Shown here piece after piece: positions 9,992 to 62,752 of a DNA stretch of 64,000 nt. The DNA is taken from the sequence record OM362897.1; one strand, given 5' to 3'. The position numbers were made by a program, and so were the translations under genes. Source of the DNA: Escherichia phage SKA64. The notes below the pieces were generated by a model. The model was not told the origin of the DNA. It ran no database searches and worked only from the letters and a program-made list of their open reading frames with translations. How positions within the stretch are numbered: the first letter of the stretch is position 1; each line of letters begins with the position of its first letter.

Positions 9992-10483
9992 ATGTTTCAA
10001 GTAGAAATTCATGTGCACAACAGTTGTTCAAATTGCGAGACTTGTGGTTACAATAGTTCAACCATGATCACTATTAGCGGAGACTTAGGAGATGCCAAGT
10101 TTGGCGAAGTCGCAAGCTGCTTCAGCGGAGAGGATGCAGATTGGCATGATATTGCACACTGGTTGGTGAGCAAACTAAAAGAAAAAGAGAAACCATTTCC
10201 TACTCTGCTTGATCGTTCTCTTGTGGAAGATGCAGGTAAAGCATATGCAGACTATGCGTATGCAGACGGGAAATATTTGGAAGATGATAAGGCTAACCAT
10301 TTGCTTTATGTTTACTATGAAGCTGAATCTGCCTACGATAATTATTACAGCATGTCCAACATTCTACGTTTGTTTGCGGAGTTTGATATTTACTTTGAAG
10401 TGAGTTATTCTCAAGACGAAGTGTACGATTTGGATGACGAAGATTATGATGATTATGAGGAGGAAGAATGCCAAGACGATTAA
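9992..10483 (+). CDS. hypothetical Cys-containing protein with acidic tail
   Basis: ATG 9992 after GGGAGG; track start 9980 lies in terminator T-tract. Confidence 0.55.
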   Translation: MFQVEIHVHNSCSNCETCGYNSSTMITISGDLGDAKFGEVASCFSGEDADWHDIAHWLVSKLKEKEKPFPTLLDRSLVEDAGKAYADYAYADGKYLEDDKANHLLYVYYEAESAYDNYYSMSNILRLFAEFDIYFEVSYSQDEVYDLDDEDYDDYEEEECQDD

Positions 10484-11268
10484 TAGTGATCAGCGGCGCG
10501 GGTCTAAGCGCCGATAGCGGTGTACGTACTTTCCGCACTGACACAGAAAGTGGCAAAGCTTTGTGGGATGAATACGACCTTTCTGAAGTGTGCGACATTT
10601 TCAACTTCCGTGCTGGATACCAACAAGAACAGTGTGTTCCTGGGGCTGTTGGCGGATTAGATGCAGAGGGATACAACCTCTACCGTAAAACTCATGACTT
10701 CTACAATAAACGTCGCGTAGAGATGGATAGTGTAACTCCTAACGCTGCGCATTACCAGATCGCGGAATGGTTCCAAGAGTACGGCTGTGATCGTGTTATC
10801 AACATCACGACAAACGTAGATGATCTTCTGGAACAAGCAGGTGTTGTTCATGAAGATGTTCTACATGTTCACGGCTTCCTGCCTGAAGTGATCGTAGACA
10901 ATAGAATCATCAAAGATGTTGGCTATGCTGCTATCGATGTGGATGATTACAAGTATGTGAAGCCCAATGTAGTGTTCTTTGGGGAGACTGCCCCATTGTA
11001 TAACGATATGTACCACATCTTAGACGGCTTGACGGCTCAAGATATGGTGATTGTAGTGGGTTGCTCTAATCAAGTTATCAATTTTAACTGGGAGCTTTTT
11101 CCTGCTCTTAACATCGGAACAAAAATGGTTGTAGTTAACCCTGGAGTTAATTACGAAGAAACACTTCTCTATGAAGATCGTGGAGTTTTTGTTTACCGAG
11201 AAAAAGCTGCAACAGCCTTCAGCAATGAAGGTTTCATTAAAATGGTCGAAGACCACTTAAACAAATAA
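10468..11268 (+). CDS. Sir2-family (sirtuin-like) NAD-binding protein
   Basis: GAGLSADSGVRTFR, TTNVDDL, LHVHG, VVFFGE sirtuin motifs; no Cx2C...Cx2C zinc module seen. Confidence 0.8.
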   Translation: MPRRLIVISGAGLSADSGVRTFRTDTESGKALWDEYDLSEVCDIFNFRAGYQQEQCVPGAVGGLDAEGYNLYRKTHDFYNKRRVEMDSVTPNAAHYQIAEWFQEYGCDRVINITTNVDDLLEQAGVVHEDVLHVHGFLPEVIVDNRIIKDVGYAAIDVDDYKYVKPNVVFFGETAPLYNDMYHILDGLTAQDMVIVVGCSNQVINFNWELFPALNIGTKMVVVNPGVNYEETLLYEDRGVFVYREKAATAFSNEGFIKMVEDHLNK

Positions 11269-28164: not shown

Positions 28165-28891
28165 GATAATCTCCTCTCATCGTTAGCCATCTTTCATGGC
28201 AATCATCAATCACCAACATCATACGATCAATCTTAGGGAATTACAATCGAATTATCATAGGGGATTCCTATCAATTATCCCATATATACCGATTATTTTT
28301 GACACCCCACTCTTGTATAAAAAGTAACCCAAAATATCTACGGGGAGAGATTATTTCGGGACACCCTGTTTCATGGCAATCATGGCAAGAATATCTAATA
28401 GAATCAATATCATATGGCAAAAATCATGGCGCATACGTAAGAAGTGCTTAACGCGAATTTTCGGGCCGTCAGGTCCACGCAGCGACAATTCCCAAATATC
28501 ATGAGAATGAGAATAATTATCATTCGTATTCAATGACTTATGCAAGGCTTATGCCAACGTAGCGACAAGGTGGGCCACTTGATTATAAATCACACAAACA
28601 CTTATTTATCAATGGTTTGGCAACCTCATCATATGACGGAACAATGTCAACTGATCCCGCTCATGACAAGCAGACTATTATTTATATGAGAATGATTATT
28701 ATTTAAACGTTTATTAGCATAAAAACTAAAATAAATCAAGAATTTTCTGATTTTATTTACGTTTAAGAGAAGATGCTCAACATATCGCTACGCGATAGTA
28801 TTCGCCCCCGAAAGATTAGCCTTTATTTTCTTGTATGTTTATACGCTATGTGCACACTATGCAACCTGTCGCTATTCGCTCATGTTGCTAC

Positions 28892-41268: not shown

Positions 41269-41535
41269 ATGACAAATACTACATTACACCTTATGCACTC
41301 ATTGGGCTGGCAAGGCGGCACGGTGCACCAGGTAGCAAGCGCAACGGGCTTAAAGGTTGAAACCGTTCTCAACCTATCAGATTATAAGGTCGAGGATAGT
41401 TATCAATTACAAAGTTACACGGGCGGTTTTACCTGGGCGCGTGAAGGTGGGAAAGAAAGCAATATACCACATTGGGGAAAAGGTGATATTCATTTTTGGC
41501 TAGGTGTCCTGACCTGGCAAGAAAACAAAAAATAA
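41269..41535 (+). CDS. hypothetical protein (lone + strand gene inside - block)
   Basis: ORF track; AAAGGG upstream; no clear promoter assigned. Confidence 0.45.
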   Translation: MTNTTLHLMHSLGWQGGTVHQVASATGLKVETVLNLSDYKVEDSYQLQSYTGGFTWAREGGKESNIPHWGKGDIHFWLGVLTWQENKK

Positions 41536-41537
41536 TC

Positions 41538-41566
41538 TTGACAAGCCCAGGGATCGGGCTTATACT
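41538..41566 (+). promoter_or_regulatory. sigma70-like promoter (alternatively part of a weak terminator)
   Basis: TTGACA, 17 bp, TATACT; spacer itself is a small hairpin agccc...gggct. Confidence 0.35.
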
Positions 41567-41785: not shown

Positions 41786-41903
41786 CATTCTCTAAATGAG
41801 AATGATTATCATTTACCTTATCAAATAAGAATCAATCTCATTTATAAACCTAAATGCGAATCATTATCATTTGCATTTCCATATGAGAACTCTTCTCATT
41901 CCC
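41786..41903. promoter_or_regulatory. cluster of Fur-box-like AT-rich operator motifs
   Basis: GAGAATGATTATCATTTAC (41798-41816; 15 of 19 matches to GATAATGATAATCATTATC), GCGAATCATTATCATTTGC (41856-41874), palindromes CATTCTCtaaatGAGAATG and ATGAGAActcTTCTCAT. Confidence 0.35.
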
Positions 41904-41921
41904 ATCTGCATAAATTTTTGT

Positions 41922-42098
41922 AAACTTTAAATTTTGCTTTTGTACTTTCATTTTTGTAAAAGCAAAAAAACTTTAAATACTGTGGGCGCGCAAAATTTTT
42001 AAAATTTTCCTTGATTTTTGAGTTTTGTTTTGTATCTGACATTTTAAGATAATTTTCCTAAACTTTAAATTTTGGTTTTCAACTTTCACTTTTGTAAA
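41922..42098. repeat. AT-rich 39 bp direct repeat pair
   Basis: AAACTTTAAATTTTGCTTTTGTACTTTCATTTTTGTAAA (41922-41960) vs AAACTTTAAATTTTGGTTTTCAACTTTCACTTTTGTAAA (42060-42098). Confidence 0.5.
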
Positions 42099-42261
42099 TT
42101 CTTAAAAAGTTTAAATAATTTGAGGGATTTTTGAGATAATAGGTAATGGGAATTTGAGATAACCTTTAATCTTATTGGCAGACCTTCAGGAACCCACTCA
42201 GATCGAATCCTAGTGATGCAAACTGAAAAAGACAAGGGTTTGTATAGGACAAAATAATAGG

Positions 42262-42290
42262 CTCTCTACGGTGCTGTAGGAGCCTTATTT
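42262..42290 (-). terminator. rho-independent terminator (bidirectional-capable)
   Basis: ggctctctacggtgctgtaggagcc hairpin with T/U-rich tracts on both sides; downstream of minus gene ending 42341. Confidence 0.55.
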
Positions 42291-42340: not shown

Positions 42341-42883
42341 TCACAAATATCGTCTTTGCGGTATTTTGTCTGGGAAAAGTATTTCGATCAGTTTGTTATG
42401 ATATTTACCTAAAAGATTTTGCCCTTTCCAGTTGACCGGATTTAGCACCCCTGGTTCATACATTCCCATTCCAATACCGTAAACCTTATCGTAAGGACTT
42501 GCTTCAACAAACGTTTTGTATTGGTAAAGGTGTAAGTCTGCATACAAATCTGGATTCTGTACATATTTCAAGCATAAACCTCGCATAACAATACGCTCAC
42601 GGTTCTCTTCCCATACATTGTTATCAAAATCCGACACTGCCCTACCCATACGTTTGTAATAAGCCTGGATCTTCTCATCTTTCCGTATCAAACTATGAGT
42701 CAGAATAGCCTGTGCAGTGTTGTGATCATTAAAAAGCAAAGCTTTACGCCACATCATGTATTGTTCGACACAATTAAATGTCTGATTGTAACCTGGTTCG
42801 GTTTCTGTAAAGGGTGCAATATACCAATTACTAAAAACATCTTTATGTGAAAAGAAGAATACATAATCATCAGTTATTCGCAT
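42341..42883 (-). CDS. NADAR (YbiA-like) domain protein
   Basis: FFFSHKDVFSNWYIAPF, VEQYMMWRKAL, LCLKYVQNPDLYADLHLY, FVEASPYDKVYGIGMG match YbiA/NADAR blocks. Confidence 0.8.
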   Translation of the reverse strand: MRITDDYVFFFSHKDVFSNWYIAPFTETEPGYNQTFNCVEQYMMWRKALLFNDHNTAQAILTHSLIRKDEKIQAYYKRMGRAVSDFDNNVWEENRERIVMRGLCLKYVQNPDLYADLHLYQYKTFVEASPYDKVYGIGMGMYEPGVLNPVNWKGQNLLGKYHNKLIEILFPDKIPQRRYL

Positions 42884-43094
42884 TTTTCATACTCTCCAAA
42901 ATTTCACGTTGCCCTTGCTGATAGGCTTTCATCAGAACTACTTTAAGGTTTGTCTCCAAGAGGTCTTCATTGTAATTATACCGCTCCACAACATATGTCA
43001 ATTCATCATAAAGATCAAGAACGGGGTAGAATACAGGGTTATCTGCTAAACGTGCCATAGTTTCTCCTTTGTTAATCCATCCACCAGTAGCCAT
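42870..43094 (-). CDS. hypothetical protein
   Basis: ORF track. Confidence 0.5.
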   Translation of the reverse strand: MATGGWINKGETMARLADNPVFYPVLDLYDELTYVVERYNYNEDLLETNLKVVLMKAYQQGQREILESMKNANN

Positions 43095-43437
43095 AAACTG
43101 CGTCTGCGTCGATGAGTTTGTGTTTGTTGTTCCGCATGTAGTCTAAGATAAGTAGACGTTTATTGTATCTGGAGAGATTATGACCCTCTTTTCCGCCATA
43201 GTCAAAATATTTTGCAAGATCTTTGCACTCAAACAAAATTAGTTCGGGAGTTTCTTCACACTGGTCTGTCTGGTACACTTGACGAATGATCATGTATACA
43301 TCATCGTCTTCCGCTAAATGCTCTACTGGTCCACATCCAGCAGGAACAAATTCATAGTCCCATCTGATCAGATGTTTCTCTACTGCTTCAAAGAAGTCCA
43401 TTCTTTCGTTGCGCATAATTTGAACGTCAACTAACAT
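43072..43437 (-). CDS. hypothetical protein
   Basis: ORF track. Confidence 0.5.
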   Translation of the reverse strand: MLVDVQIMRNERMDFFEAVEKHLIRWDYEFVPAGCGPVEHLAEDDDVYMIIRQVYQTDQCEETPELILFECKDLAKYFDYGGKEGHNLSRYNKRLLILDYMRNNKHKLIDADAVYGYWWMD

Positions 43438-44411
43438 GTTTCCTCCTGTAATATTCCACCATAAAGTTTATAAATGTTTTGTATTGATGCCATGCAAGAT
43501 AACTCTACTGTTTCTGTGTAGCCATCTGGCATAGCATATTTGCTCACTGCTTCCGTATCAAGAATACGCTTACAACGACTCTCTGCATCTTTGCACTGCT
43601 TAACAGTAGGGAAGTGCCACACTTGGTGTTGTTTCATAGTTAACACATTATGGCTATTTTGTTCTTTAATACGCCTATCGCTATCTTTAGTAATGCCAAA
43701 TTTCAAGGCACAGAGAACACCTTGTTCATCATAGACATAGTTAATGTAACATTGCTGTTGATTTTTGTTAGCACAATGCGGACAACCTTGACCCAGGTTT
43801 AATAAGCTATTAGCACTCCCTATATGCTCCCCGTGATCCTTACACCCATATTTAAACTTCCCTATTGATGAGGGTTTACTGATCCACTCTATCCAGATAT
43901 ATCCTTTACTTTCTAAACCTTTTCTCACTTTGTAGGTGATTTGTTCGTCTGTATAATGATAATTTTTAGAACAACGGCAAGGGAGACTCCCTCTTTTAAG
44001 GTTATTCCCTTGTGCATAAAACCTGCCATCACAGACGTGAGCTTGCACATATTCATCATGGGAACATTTAGGACATTCAACCATCCAGATAATACTCTTC
44101 CCTTTACGTTTGCCTGTATTGGTGAAGATAGTTCCAGGCTTAAACTTCCCTGTACTTATGAAATTTTGTATGTGCTGATTGTCTGGAATAGCTTTTGCTT
44201 TACTTATTTTATCATACACACAGGTAGGGCAACCAGTACCCCGTTTAAAGTTATAAAAACAGCATGTATTCCATTCATGACCATGACTACAACGTAGGAT
44301 CATCTTCGTATGCGCACCTTTAAACGGCTCTACGATACCTATAATGGTAATCCCCTTAGTTTCCGCTATTGGTTTACATTCTTCCATGTACTGTTCTAAC
44401 GTCTTTGCCAT
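43431..44411 (-). CDS. multi-zinc-ribbon protein
   Basis: three C-x-H/C...C-x2-C modules (CSHGHEW...CPTC; CPKCSHDEY; CKDHGEH...CPHCANKN). Confidence 0.55.
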   Translation of the reverse strand: MAKTLEQYMEECKPIAETKGITIIGIVEPFKGAHTKMILRCSHGHEWNTCCFYNFKRGTGCPTCVYDKISKAKAIPDNQHIQNFISTGKFKPGTIFTNTGKRKGKSIIWMVECPKCSHDEYVQAHVCDGRFYAQGNNLKRGSLPCRCSKNYHYTDEQITYKVRKGLESKGYIWIEWISKPSSIGKFKYGCKDHGEHIGSANSLLNLGQGCPHCANKNQQQCYINYVYDEQGVLCALKFGITKDSDRRIKEQNSHNVLTMKQHQVWHFPTVKQCKDAESRCKRILDTEAVSKYAMPDGYTETVELSCMASIQNIYKLYGGILQEETC

Positions 44412-44491: not shown

Positions 44492-45631
44492 TTAGAACAC
44501 GCTACCTAATGTGGTGGAACGTTGTGTTACAGGCTCCAGCACCACTCGCAGAGTGTTTCCTGGTGTAGTGCTCATCACCAGAATCTTACCACCTTCAATC
44601 AGATCACAAGTTAGACCATCAGCAGTTGCACATAGATCAATATGTGGATCACCATCTTCATCCAGGATAACATAACTGTTGGTTTCCATTGCTTCCACTT
44701 CATCATCTTTCAAACTTTGTAGATAGATGTTCAGGGAACAAGCACCCGACAAAAACTTAGTAGGGGTGAAGTCGTGCCAGTTATTGATCCAATTCACCTT
44801 CAAGGTTTTGCCATTAGCTACGATAGAAGCCACATTCCATTTAGCATCGTTCCCTAAAGAAATACCCATCATTTCAAGACATTCTTTAAAAGTCATTTTT
44901 GGATAGAAATTCAATTCTTCTACAATGCCTTGAATAACATCGAAAGACAACTCTGTGCTAACATCCCATAAACGTTGGAAGTTATCTACGTGCTTTTTAT
45001 TTACCAAGTTCTTATCCAAGTAATCTAACATAGTTTCACTAGACAGTTTATCGTAATTGAAACTGTAGTAGATACGACTAGGACGGTTTACAAAATATTC
45101 CGAGATATAGCCACTATTTTTAGTGAGGATGTAAAGTTTATTTCCACTTCCTGTTCCATCCAACAAGGTCAACAGTGCTTCCTGATCTTCTTTCTTAGCG
45201 TACACTTTATCAAACTCGTCAAATAAAACAACAGCACGATCTGTAATTTTACTCATAAATTCTAAGAATCCAGCGTCTGTGTAAGGCTGTGTCACCAAAA
45301 TGGTTGGAATACCTAAACCTTCTGTGGACATTAGGGACATGCTAATCAGTTTAGCTAACATCGTCTTACCACTGCCCTTTGTCCCTGTCAGTAACACCCC
45401 AGTATTTTTACCTTCTTTACTACGACGAGCAAATGTTTTAATAACATGTGCGGCGCGGTCTTTAGTTTCCCCATAAAGAGTGTTCGGAAGAGAGAAACTT
45501 TCGCCACGCACTAAAGAGTAGTTACCGTGCGGATCGCAGTTGACAACCCAAACTCCAGCAGGAAGTTTATTAGCTTCAACACCATATTCCTTATTTACAA
45601 CAGCCACATCTCCAAAAATAGTGTATTTCAT
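44492..45631 (-). CDS. AAA+ family ATPase
   Basis: Walker A GTKGSGKT, Walker B VVLFDEFD. Confidence 0.7.
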   Translation of the reverse strand: MKYTIFGDVAVVNKEYGVEANKLPAGVWVVNCDPHGNYSLVRGESFSLPNTLYGETKDRAAHVIKTFARRSKEGKNTGVLLTGTKGSGKTMLAKLISMSLMSTEGLGIPTILVTQPYTDAGFLEFMSKITDRAVVLFDEFDKVYAKKEDQEALLTLLDGTGSGNKLYILTKNSGYISEYFVNRPSRIYYSFNYDKLSSETMLDYLDKNLVNKKHVDNFQRLWDVSTELSFDVIQGIVEELNFYPKMTFKECLEMMGISLGNDAKWNVASIVANGKTLKVNWINNWHDFTPTKFLSGACSLNIYLQSLKDDEVEAMETNSYVILDEDGDPHIDLCATADGLTCDLIEGGKILVMSTTPGNTLRVVLEPVTQRSTTLGSVF

Positions 45632-48311: not shown

Positions 48312-48605
48312 TCACATTAAGACACGTTTTGTGTCGATGGGTGCATTATCAAACATGTTAAGAACATTGTCAAGCAGTTTTACTAATTCATTTGTAATTT
48401 GTTCTTTTGAACGGGAGGAAGTGAGCACTTTGCTTTCACCAACGATATGCATAACTTTTATAGGAGCGTCTAAAATGATGTTGTGTTGACGATCCTCTTC
48501 AAAAGAAGCCAACCATTTCTCATTGTTACCGTGCAAGGCTACAATCACACCAAAACCGTTAATTGTTTCAGAAATATTCTTAGTTGCTAAAGTAATGTTC
48601 ATCAT
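48312..48605 (-). CDS. hypothetical protein
   Basis: ORF track; first gene of - block after divergent region. Confidence 0.5.
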   Translation of the reverse strand: MMNITLATKNISETINGFGVIVALHGNNEKWLASFEEDRQHNIILDAPIKVMHIVGESKVLTSSRSKEQITNELVKLLDNVLNMFDNAPIDTKRVLM

Positions 48606-60788: not shown

Positions 60789-61445
60789 ATGACTATTAAA
60801 CATATCTCTTTTGATGTATGGAACACACTGATCACAGCAAACTCCAATTACGCAGACATGCGAGCCTGGACTATCGCAAAATATGGAGATATTACGGAAG
60901 TTGAAGCAAGAGCAGCTTATAAAAAGATCAAAAAGGAACTGGATAATGCAGCACTTCAAGGCAAAGCCGAGTGTGCAGCATACGCCTGGGAAAGACTTGG
61001 TTCTGAACTTGGGATAACGCCTTGGAAGTCTGCAAAGCTTCGTTTCGAGTGTGAACAGTGGTTCCTTAAGTTTCCACCACACGTAGCCGTAGATCTGCCG
61101 ATGTACTTGCTGTATCTTTCTGGGCGTTATGATTTGAGTATTAAGAGCAATACCAACTTCATATCAGGGGATATTCTGCGTCGTGCTTGTAAGTTTGATA
61201 GTTGGAATTGTTTTGAGTTCACCCATTTCTCGGATGAAGCTTTACTTTGTAAACCAGATCCGCGATTCTTTGCTCGCACGCTCACGTATTCTCCGATCCC
61301 TCTGTTAGGGCACGAAGTGTTGCACGTAGGCGATAGTGAAGAATATGATGGAAAATGTGTTGACTTAGGGTTTAACTTCTGTCATATTAAGAACCCTAAC
61401 GACTTACTAGAGAAACTTAAAAGAGGAGAAATTGTAAATGCGTAA
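60789..61445 (+). CDS. HAD-superfamily hydrolase-like protein
   Basis: ISFDVWNTLI (motif I with Asp nucleophile position), SIKSNTN, HVGDSEEYDGK (motif IV-like). Confidence 0.6.
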   Translation: MTIKHISFDVWNTLITANSNYADMRAWTIAKYGDITEVEARAAYKKIKKELDNAALQGKAECAAYAWERLGSELGITPWKSAKLRFECEQWFLKFPPHVAVDLPMYLLYLSGRYDLSIKSNTNFISGDILRRACKFDSWNCFEFTHFSDEALLCKPDPRFFARTLTYSPIPLLGHEVLHVGDSEEYDGKCVDLGFNFCHIKNPNDLLEKLKRGEIVNA

Positions 61446-62265
61446 TCAAACTCAAATTTTTGCAAATAAATTTGATGACCTGGAAACTGCTACTTTTGAT
61501 ATCCAAGATTATTCAAAATTGAAATTTGGTAGTAACCAAGCTGCGCGTCGTATGGGTAAAGAATTGGCACTTCAGTTTTTTGCTCAAGTGGCAATGAAAC
61601 ATATTGGGGAACAATTTGTTATCATTCCTTCTCCTTACAACCATGTGCATAATGCTGCAACAATGATGACAGATCATTTTATTAATTACTTCAATATGTT
61701 GCAAGCACAATATGATCAAGGTCGTTCAGCAGAACTGGACATTATTCATCGTAAAGTTAGCTATATCAACGATTATGGTTTCTTGGATAAAGCTAGTCGT
61801 AAGAAACTTATTGATGGGGATACATTCTACTGTAACAAAGAATTCTGGGGTGATAAGAAGCTTGTGTTTATTGATGATGTAAATATCACTGGAACTCATG
61901 AAGACAAACTGATTGAGATCCTTGATGAAAATCAAGTTAAAAATGATGTTTACTTCTTGTATTTTGCAAAATACGAAGGTAATCAAGCAGATACCGAAGC
62001 TAAACTGAATTTTAATTATATTAATACACCAGAAGCGTTTGTTAAAATGATTAATGAAGAACGTGATGCACAGTGTCTTGTTCGTCCTATTAAGTATCTT
62101 ATGGGCCAAAATCACGAAGACTTCAAAATCATTCTTAGCCAATTACCACACTACTATGTAGAGCAACTTTTCTTCGGATGTTTGGGAGAAGGTTACAACC
62201 GAATTTCAAAGTATGCCGAAAACTTTGAATTCTTGGATCGTTACACAAAACAACACATTCTGTAA
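61438..62265 (+). CDS. type I phosphoribosyltransferase-fold protein
   Basis: KLVFIDDVNITGTHE matches PRPP-binding loop; overlaps HAD gene stop. Confidence 0.6.
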   Translation: MRNQTQIFANKFDDLETATFDIQDYSKLKFGSNQAARRMGKELALQFFAQVAMKHIGEQFVIIPSPYNHVHNAATMMTDHFINYFNMLQAQYDQGRSAELDIIHRKVSYINDYGFLDKASRKKLIDGDTFYCNKEFWGDKKLVFIDDVNITGTHEDKLIEILDENQVKNDVYFLYFAKYEGNQADTEAKLNFNYINTPEAFVKMINEERDAQCLVRPIKYLMGQNHEDFKIILSQLPHYYVEQLFFGCLGEGYNRISKYAENFEFLDRYTKQHIL

Positions 62266-62278
62266 TAAGGAGCTAAAA

Positions 62279-62752
62279 ATGCTTAAAATGAAAACAGGTA
62301 ATCTTATTGATGCCGCTAAAGCAGGTGAAGTAACTGTTATTGCTCATTGTTGCAATTGTATGTGTAATATGGGGGCAGGTATTGCCCCACAAATCAAACG
62401 AGCATTTCCTTACGCATATGCAGCAGACTTAGACACAATGGCTGGTGATCAAAGTAAACTAGGTTGTTTTAGTTTAGGGGTGCCAGACGAACAATCAGAT
62501 CCTTTGGTATATAATCTATACGGGCAGTATCGTTATGGATACAATGCTAAAGGTCGTCAGTTGGACTATGATGCACTTTACGATGCACTAATAGCTATGG
62601 CTAACGATTTGCTTCTCCGTGACCAAAAATGTAAGATCGGCTTACCTATGATTGGCGCTGGATATGCTGGAGGTAATTGGGCTATCATCCAAGTGATGAT
62701 TGAAGAAACTTTAGTAAAAACAGGTCACGATGTGACTATTTATAAACTTTAA
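62279..62752 (+). CDS. macro domain protein
   Basis: ATG after TAAGGAG; VTVIAHCCNCMCNMGAGIAPQI and IGLPMIGAGYAGGNW macro-like blocks. Confidence 0.7.
   Translation: MLKMKTGNLIDAAKAGEVTVIAHCCNCMCNMGAGIAPQIKRAFPYAYAADLDTMAGDQSKLGCFSLGVPDEQSDPLVYNLYGQYRYGYNAKGRQLDYDALYDALIAMANDLLLRDQKCKIGLPMIGAGYAGGNWAIIQVMIEETLVKTGHDVTIYKL

Follow-up and report, generated by a model that had tools for sequence, protein, structure and literature searches.

The NADAR gene of Escherichia phage SKA64, an ortholog of AdfN^Bas60 with a probable role against DarT1

Gene, family and fold of the SKA64 NADAR protein

The window analyzed here is a stretch of 64,000 nucleotides from Escherichia phage SKA64 (sequence record OM362897.1), and the gene in question codes for a NADAR-domain protein, hereafter SKA64 NADAR. 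The 5 kb around the gene share 90-95% nucleotide identity with the phAPEC8-like coliphages nepoznato, phAPEC8 and tuntematon, and by sequence the window is from a Phapecoctavirus (phAPEC8-like) genome of the subfamily Stephanstirmvirinae. An earlier note on this DNA had placed a NADAR (YbiA-like) open reading frame (ORF) at 42341-42883, and the ORF was found exactly there, on the minus strand, with an ATG start and 180 codons. The gene and its immediate signals are the following:

42341..42883, minus strand: NADAR-domain coding sequence (SKA64 NADAR), ATG start, 180 amino acids, from the ORF list
42892..42897, minus strand: Shine-Dalgarno sequence GGAGAG of SKA64 NADAR, 8 nucleotides before the ATG, read from the sequence
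42248..42285, minus strand: intrinsic terminator of the leftward operon, ~55 nucleotides past the NADAR stop codon

The first 14 nucleotides of the gene are shared with the end of the small ORF before it, an arrangement that fits translational coupling. The terminator has a hairpin (42259-42285) followed by the U-rich tract UAUUAUUUUGU; its RNA fold was calculated at -22.1 kcal/mol (z=-5.7), and none of 200 shuffled sequences was equally stable. The phAPEC8 record carries an annotated ARNold terminator at the homologous site.

SKA64 NADAR matched the Pfam family NADAR (PF08719, DUF1768) over residues 11-161 with E=1.8e-35 and 123 bits (cut-off 35.1 bits; profile positions 3-154 of 163). It also matched phrog_1017 (E=7e-52) and TIGR02464, whose title is 'riboflavin biosynthesis intermediates N-glycosidase' (112.3 bits, cut-off 73.7). 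When solved structures were searched by sequence, the sole relative was the NADAR protein of Phytophthora nicotianae (PnNADAR, 8BAU; phmmer, E=4e-15). An AlphaFold2 model computed from an alignment of 56 homologs reached a predicted local distance difference test score (pLDDT) of 95.7 and a predicted template modeling score (pTM) of 0.89. With this model, Foldseek returned as significant only 8BAU, with a template modeling score on the query (TMq) of 0.78, and E. coli YbiA (2B3W, TMq 0.69). A family profile built here scored 121 bits on 8BAU and 63.5 bits on YbiA 2B3W. Proteins of the NADAR superfamily have a YbiA-like fold, in which an alpha-helical core lies between two small beta sheets. 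By family match and by fold, SKA64 NADAR is unambiguously a member of this superfamily. The strong similarity to YbiA/NADAR that the earlier note had reported stands for the NADAR family, but not for E. coli YbiA itself, to which a direct BLASTP comparison gave 31.6 bits (29% identity over 96 residues).

A protein identical to SKA64 NADAR is encoded by Shigella phage SF1-1. By tblastn the family was found in 718 phage records, among them Staphylococcus Kayvirus, Listeria P100-like, Bacillus, Klebsiella and Pseudomonas phages, and a search of 5.8 billion proteins gave more than 1000 homologs, all with PF08719. Within Phapecoctavirus the ratio of nonsynonymous to synonymous substitution rates (dN/dS) of the gene ranged from 0 to 0.15, and the gene is under purifying selection in this genus. 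The closest homologs labelled 'bacterial', on Burkholderia contigs and on a 327-kb contig, were located in prophage-like or large phage-like gene arrays, and no ADP-ribosyltransferase gene adjoins NADAR in those Burkholderia contigs or in the 327-kb contig. As judged from these sequences, the clade of SKA64 NADAR may be largely phage-borne. On the 327-kb contig, a gene of the adenylosuccinate-synthetase family lies near the NADAR homolog.

The GenBank annotation of the orthologs is inconsistent and partly wrong. Among the names given to them are 'GTP cyclohydrolase II', 'DNA methyltransferase' and 'swarming motility protein', and elsewhere 'YbiA-like N-glycosidase', 'NADAR family protein' or 'hypothetical protein'. 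Where a record has 'GTP cyclohydrolase II', the name was apparently carried over from RibA-fusion proteins. The present assignment corrects the first three of these labels, which are misleading.

Orthology to AdfN^Bas60 and active-site residues

Phage NADARs have been described as AdfN, orphan antitoxin-like enzymes that free phage DNA of the ADP-ribose attached by DarT1 (Johannesman et al., Nat Commun 2025, PMC11825919). The NADARs tested in that work were T4 gp30.3 (AdfN^T4), AdfN^Bas32 and AdfN^Bas60. DarT1 in E. coli was neutralized by AdfN^Bas60 alone, and in its presence RB69, T5 and Bas25 again plated on DarTG1 hosts; against DarTG2 it gave no protection, as seen from T5 plating (PMC11825919). 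Phages Bas60-62 are phi92-like and are classed in GenBank as Justusliebigvirus, Stephanstirmvirinae, which is the sister genus of the Phapecoctavirus to which SKA64 belongs. AdfN^Bas60 is bas60_0111 (QXV83846.1) of Escherichia phage PaulScherrer, and it is near-identical in Bas61, Bas62 and phi92 (gp223).

SKA64 NADAR and bas60_0111 shared 59% identity over 172 residues (E=7e-69). The flanking genes are related as well, with 64% identity between the ATPase and bas60_0109 and 55% between the CapR/GIY-YIG endonuclease and bas60_0110, and the order ATPase-endonuclease-NADAR is the same in both phages. Since this degree of identity is accompanied by a conserved gene order, we conclude that the SKA64 gene is the positional ortholog of a validated AdfN. 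Both are stand-alone phage NADARs of 180-183 amino acids, with a common clade-specific insertion of ~7 amino acids (residues ~61-72) and the motifs FSNWY, VEQYMMWRKA and FVEASPYD. They differ in 41% of the residues and in the genus of the phage (Justusliebigvirus versus Phapecoctavirus). The loop after strand 2 is shorter in SKA64 (TETEPGYNQT versus EPLAPKYNNSITSSVE), and SKA64 has two extra small ORFs between the endonuclease and NADAR genes. AdfN^Bas60 is experimentally validated, whereas we infer the activity of the SKA64 protein from it; our literature search found no paper in which a Phapecoctavirus NADAR was tested.

The NADAR allele of phage Schickermooser differs from that of SKA64 at 18 amino acids, and 16 of these differences fall in residues 34-90, which surround the clade-specific insertion loop. 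The remaining two are at residue 6 and residues 150-151, and the C-terminal half is otherwise identical. This pattern suggests a mosaic gene or a locally fast-evolving surface near the putative ADP-ribose/DNA-binding side.

The contacts of PnNADAR with ADP-ribose are E43, K50, K75, R79, Y84, D86, W89, R93, E125, D130 and W133 (Schuller et al. 2023, PMC11543638). Mutagenesis of DarG1 from E. coli C7 revealed that the equivalents of E43, K50 and E125 matter (PMC11543638). We mapped these positions on SKA64 NADAR from a HMMER alignment, in which the 8BAU chain numbers equal the numbering of the paper plus 2, and also from a multiple alignment. PnNADAR E43, K50, K75, R79 and W89 correspond to SKA64 E40, K47, K77, R81 and W91, and R93, E125 and D130 to R95, E127 and D132; two contacts are substituted, Y84 by F86 and W133 by Y135. 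The key residues of SKA64 NADAR are S18, W20, E40, K47, K77, R81, W91, R95, E127, S129, D132 and Y135, and across 56-57 homologs E40, K47, K77, G80, W91, E127, S129 and D132 were invariant. The protein carries the NADAR signature, i.e., a Glu and a Lys 7 residues apart in helix 1, the basic diphosphate residues and the acidic diagnostic residue. Mutations in equivalent residues abolish or reduce the activity of E. coli C7 DarG1, T4 AdfN and SCO5665. In SCO5665, residues W71, S169 and W175 were implicated by docking, and these correspond to W20, S129 and Y135 of the SKA64 protein.

The diagnostic position is a Glu in the 'NADAR' and YbiA families, an Asp in DarG1 and a His in T4-type phage NADARs; both SKA64 NADAR (E127) and AdfN^Bas60 have a Glu. 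According to a 2026 study, Glu-type NADARs and enzymes of the YbiA type clear DNA and RNA in vitro of guanine-linked (G-ADPr) as well as cytidine-linked ADP-ribose (C-ADPr), whereas DarG1 and the T4 NADAR removed the guanine adduct only. Because SKA64 NADAR is of the glutamate type, its substrates may include cytidine-linked ADP-ribose and RNA, and by analogy with these enzymes a dual G/C specificity is plausible.

The PADLOC candidate-defence model PDC-M42C was matched by SKA64 NADAR (120 bits) and by AdfN^Bas60 (117 bits), and the NCBIfam model 'DS32_2 NADAR family anti-phage protein' matched SKA64 NADAR weakly. From the existence of these two models it follows that NADARs of this type are present on the defence side too.

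Proposed role and alternative explanations

We propose that the SKA64 gene, as the counterpart of AdfN^Bas60 in Phapecoctavirus, encodes a stand-alone NADAR ADP-ribosylglycohydrolase and that its main role is probably counter-defence against DarT1. The protein is, with very high confidence, an active NADAR hydrolase. The enzyme would be made early, as the product of the last gene of a leftward operon, and would bind the ADP-ribose that a host DarT1-type toxin puts on guanine N2 in phage DNA. The diphosphate would be held by K47, K77, R81, W91 and R95, with the base stacked on W20, while E40, E127 and D132 would orient the distal ribose and catalyse cleavage of the N-glycosidic bond by water. 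Free ADP-ribose would then be released and unmodified guanine restored, and we propose that the replication of phage DNA could therefore continue in DarTG1 hosts. The idea of the earlier note that a phage NADAR could act against DarT-like ADP-ribosylation of guanine thus gains support, by analogy, from the orthology to AdfN^Bas60, the synteny and the key residues. On the side of SKA64, the observations are the ORF, the fold, the conservation of residues, the orthology and synteny with AdfN^Bas60 and the purifying selection. For homologs, hydrolysis of G-ADPr, neutralization of DarT1 and rescue of phages have been shown by others, and an equal activity and role of the SKA64 protein would follow by analogy.

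Several points weigh against this proposal. Specificity may have diverged at 59% identity, and an enzyme that hydrolyses G-ADPr in vitro need not protect cells: both YbiA and T4 gp30.3 have this activity, but neither rescues uninfected cells from DarT1 toxicity. In the view of Iyer et al. 2022, the substrates of most phage NADARs are small ADP-ribose derivatives and not macromolecular adducts. The timing of expression is deduced from consensus promoter matches only. Finally, the cut-off of TIGR02464 is exceeded; this match does not discriminate, since AdfN^Bas60 scores 109.4 bits (true YbiA scores 169.5 bits). An argument for a riboflavin role built on the TIGR02464 match was rejected, because the DarT1 antagonist scores like SKA64 NADAR.

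Comparison with the characterized NADARs places the protein further. PnNADAR is its best match among solved structures, and the residues that contact ADP-ribose, including the Glu-type catalytic residue, are conserved; the two differ in that PnNADAR is eukaryotic, ~28-37% identical, and has its own N-terminal and internal extensions. With AdfN^T4, SKA64 NADAR shares the superfamily fold, the E/K pair seven residues apart and, presumably, the role of an orphan NADAR set against DarTG1. There was no detectable pairwise similarity between them (BLASTP E=4.3; 16% identity in the alignment), and the T4 type has the diagnostic His and the core domain only. Full activity of the T4 enzyme also depends on a T-even context, and C-ADPr is not removed by it. 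By its E127 and the lack of relatedness to gp30.3, SKA64 NADAR is outside the T4-type 'phage NADAR' family.

The DarG1 proteins of E. coli C7 and Geobacter lovleyi would share with it the chemistry of guanine-N2-ADP-ribose hydrolysis. DarG1 is a type IV 'antitoxin', which does not bind the toxin. Its diagnostic residue is Asp, its N terminus carries a basic beta-beta-alpha extension and a darT1 gene lies next to its gene; SKA64 NADAR has none of these. The AlphaFold2 model of the SKA64 protein begins directly at the core strand, i.e., it lacks a DarG1-type N-terminal extension, and the family profile gave no match to the G. lovleyi DarG1 structure at E<=0.01. This comparison was based on published residue equivalences, and on these sequence features SKA64 NADAR is outside DarG1 (the BC4488 subfamily). 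E. coli YbiA has the NADAR fold and a Glu-type active site, and hydrolyses G-ADPr in vitro. It differs in being the product of a housekeeping gene that belongs to a LexA-controlled operon, and it does not rescue cells from DarT1 in vivo. A NADAR gene, sought in E. coli O157:H7 Sakai as a sigma-70-linked one, is not annotated next to rpsU-dnaG-rpoD.

Among the alternatives, the one that survives best is that SKA64 NADAR is a nucleic-acid de-ADP-ribosylase of broad range, directed in nature mainly at something other than DarT1, the reversal of DarT1 modification being one facet of its activity. The targets would be G- or C-linked ADP-ribose placed on DNA or RNA by pierisin/ScARP-like, YarT-like or as yet unknown defence toxins. 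E127 at the diagnostic position, together with W20 and S129, is what such an enzyme would be expected to have, since Glu-type and YbiA-type enzymes clear both adducts and Asp- and His-type enzymes only G-ADPr. The family profile is nearest to PnNADAR, which is not DarT-associated, and the authors who described AdfN themselves propose broader targets (PMC11825919). However, the sole in vivo phenotype known for an ortholog is anti-DarTG1, and no C-ADP-ribosylating phage defence is known, so that we regard this alternative as improbable as the main role. A broad de-ADP-ribosylase activity is compatible with a main role against DarT1, and is the most interesting of these possibilities.

Less probable still is that the protein hydrolyses small ADP-ribose derivatives, such as cyclic or linear ADP-ribose-based immune signals or NAD-derived toxins, or inhibits by binding ADP-ribose, rather than deconjugating DNA. 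Iyer et al. 2022 proposed such a role for phage NADARs generally and noted the co-occurrence of NADAR and Macro in phage genomes, as in SKA64, where genes for Sir2, phosphoribosyltransferase and Macro proteins are also in the window. Another phage NADAR, from work on Retron-Eco1, needs no enzymatic activity as far as it is cited in PMC11825919. The syntenic ortholog, however, works enzymatically on the product of a DNA-modifying toxin, the invariant catalytic residues speak against a purely binding role, and no NADAR was reported to degrade an immune signal in the literature examined.

The other possibility offered by the earlier note, a metabolic N-glycosidase of the YbiA type (COG3236) that would clear reactive intermediates of the riboflavin pathway or other damaged nucleotides during infection, is the least probable of all: it could draw on the TIGR02464 score, on the Glu at the position by which de Souza and Aravind defined the 'YbiA family', and on the several orthologs labelled in GenBank as 'GTP cyclohydrolase II' or 'YbiA-like N-glycosidase', but the similarity to YbiA is weak in both the direct and the profile comparison, no riboflavin genes or RibA/RibD fusion were found near SKA64 NADAR, and AdfN^Bas60, equal in its TIGR02464 score, antagonizes DarT1 and is placed among non-YbiA NADARs (PMC11825919).

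The biology is already published (2025) for a close syntenic ortholog in a sister genus, and the idea of counter-defence is itself not new; the gain is incremental, a published counter-defence family being extended to another genus. Phapecoctaviruses and the coliphages of the phi92-like sister genus have a broad host range and are often discussed as candidates for therapy. SKA64 NADAR also offers a natural Glu-type phage enzyme for probing the reversal of cytidine- as well as guanine-linked ADP-ribose.

Macrodomain gene, operon and downstream region

A second gene with a likeness to DarG proteins lies at the far end of the window:

62279..62752, plus strand: stand-alone DarG/TARG1-type macrodomain protein, 157 amino acids from an ATG that follows AAGGAG; Pfam Macro

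The mechanical ORF begins at 62213, and the ATG at 62279 is the probable start. In BLASTP the protein was 36% identical to T4 Tk.4 (E=1e-20), which a 2025 preprint named AdfM and reported to counter DarTG2. Its best relatives in the Protein Data Bank were SCO6735 (5E3B), TARG1 and the macrodomain of Thermus aquaticus DarG (5M31). The PADLOC model of DarG matched it with E=4.2e-10, in the macrodomain part only, and the SF1-1 record labels the gene 'phosphatase'. By these sequence relationships, it is probably a second counter-defence gene of the orphan-antitoxin type, and a second DarG-like orphan enzyme fits with selection by DNA ADP-ribosylation. The two genes suggest that SKA64 carries counterparts of both DarG classes, as a candidate two-enzyme anti-DarT kit. 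The AdfN-type NADAR and the apparent AdfM-type macrodomain predict that DarTG1 or DarTG2 in target strains will not restrict such phages.

A more speculative extension, which we consider unlikely, is that the Glu-type NADAR erases G- and C-linked ADP-ribose from DNA or RNA and the DarG-type macrodomain thymine-linked ADP-ribose, which together would confer near-complete immunity. If so, the immunity to nucleobase ADP-ribosylation would extend to transferases that are not yet recognized as phage defences, and the reversal of cytidine-linked ADP-ribose by a phage would imply a C-modifying defence in enterobacteria.

Directly upstream of the macrodomain gene, and overlapping, the genes at 60789-62265 (plus strand) code for a HAD-like hydrolase (weak match) and a ComF-like phosphoribosyltransferase (PF15610, 144 bits). 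Together with the macrodomain gene they may form an ADP-ribose- or nucleotide-processing module. A Sir2-family protein (PF02146, 72 bits), another NAD-dependent enzyme in SKA64, is encoded at 10468-11268 (plus strand).

The NADAR gene is the last of a ~6-kb string of leftward, co-oriented genes that runs from ~48.3-48.7 kb to the terminator at 42.25 kb. The neighbouring features of this string are:

42870..43094, minus strand: small upstream ORF, 74 amino acids (62 as annotated in relatives), overlaps the NADAR start; no family match
43072..43437, minus strand: ORF of 121 amino acids, no family match; in Phapecoctavirus, absent from the Bas60 block
43431..44411, minus strand: CapR-repeat and GIY-YIG/T5orf172-type endonuclease, 326 amino acids; Pfam CapR E=6.7e-27
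44492..45631, minus strand: AAA-type ATPase, 379 amino acids; the bas60_0109 relative described above
48345..48373, minus strand: best sigma-70-like promoter, TTGACA-17-GATAAT, 11 of 12 matches

The neighbours of the NADAR gene are the AAA ATPase, the endonuclease and the unmatched small ORFs, and no toxin or ADP-ribosyltransferase gene was found beside it. At the head of the leftward string is a divergent intergenic region, which holds the promoter at 48345..48373 and has strong sigma-70-like promoters on both strands. As read from these consensus matches, the NADAR operon is probably transcribed early and by the host RNA polymerase.

The MUG113/T5orf172 matches of the endonuclease were weak (Pfam). 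Its length varies, from 326 amino acids in SKA64 to 394 in phAPEC8 and 467 in Bas60, because CapR/zinc-ribbon repeats have been gained or lost. The NADAR genes of phage UPEC06 and of a Klebsiella phage adjoin HNH endonucleases.

Between the NADAR terminator and the next gene lies a non-coding region of ~780 bp. Neither ARAGORN nor Rfam (at gathering thresholds) gave a hit anywhere in the window, the ORF-poor stretch that follows NADAR included, and a structured RNA considered for this place has no support from known families. This ORF-free intergenic stretch downstream of the terminator contains three tandem 21-nucleotide palindromes at 41794-41872, with a spacing of 29 nucleotides (AAATGAGAATGATTATCATTT and variants), and two more copies are at 28505-28525 and 28684-28704. 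The motif gave 8 strand-matches, where 0.01 would be expected by chance. The palindromes resemble the E. coli Fur box, with 3 mismatches to GATAATGATAATCATTATC (0.05 such matches expected by chance). A 72-nucleotide AT-rich direct repeat in the ~780-bp region (41913-41984 and 42051-42122, 82% identical) contains the promoter-like elements TTTACAAAA...AAATTTAAAGTTTA. Convergent with the NADAR operon, an ORF of 88 amino acids (41269-41535, plus strand) has its own promoter-like site and no Pfam match, and is followed by a terminator-like hairpin (41543-41561, plus strand). A 267-bp gene is in a similar position in Bas60 and JLBYU50.

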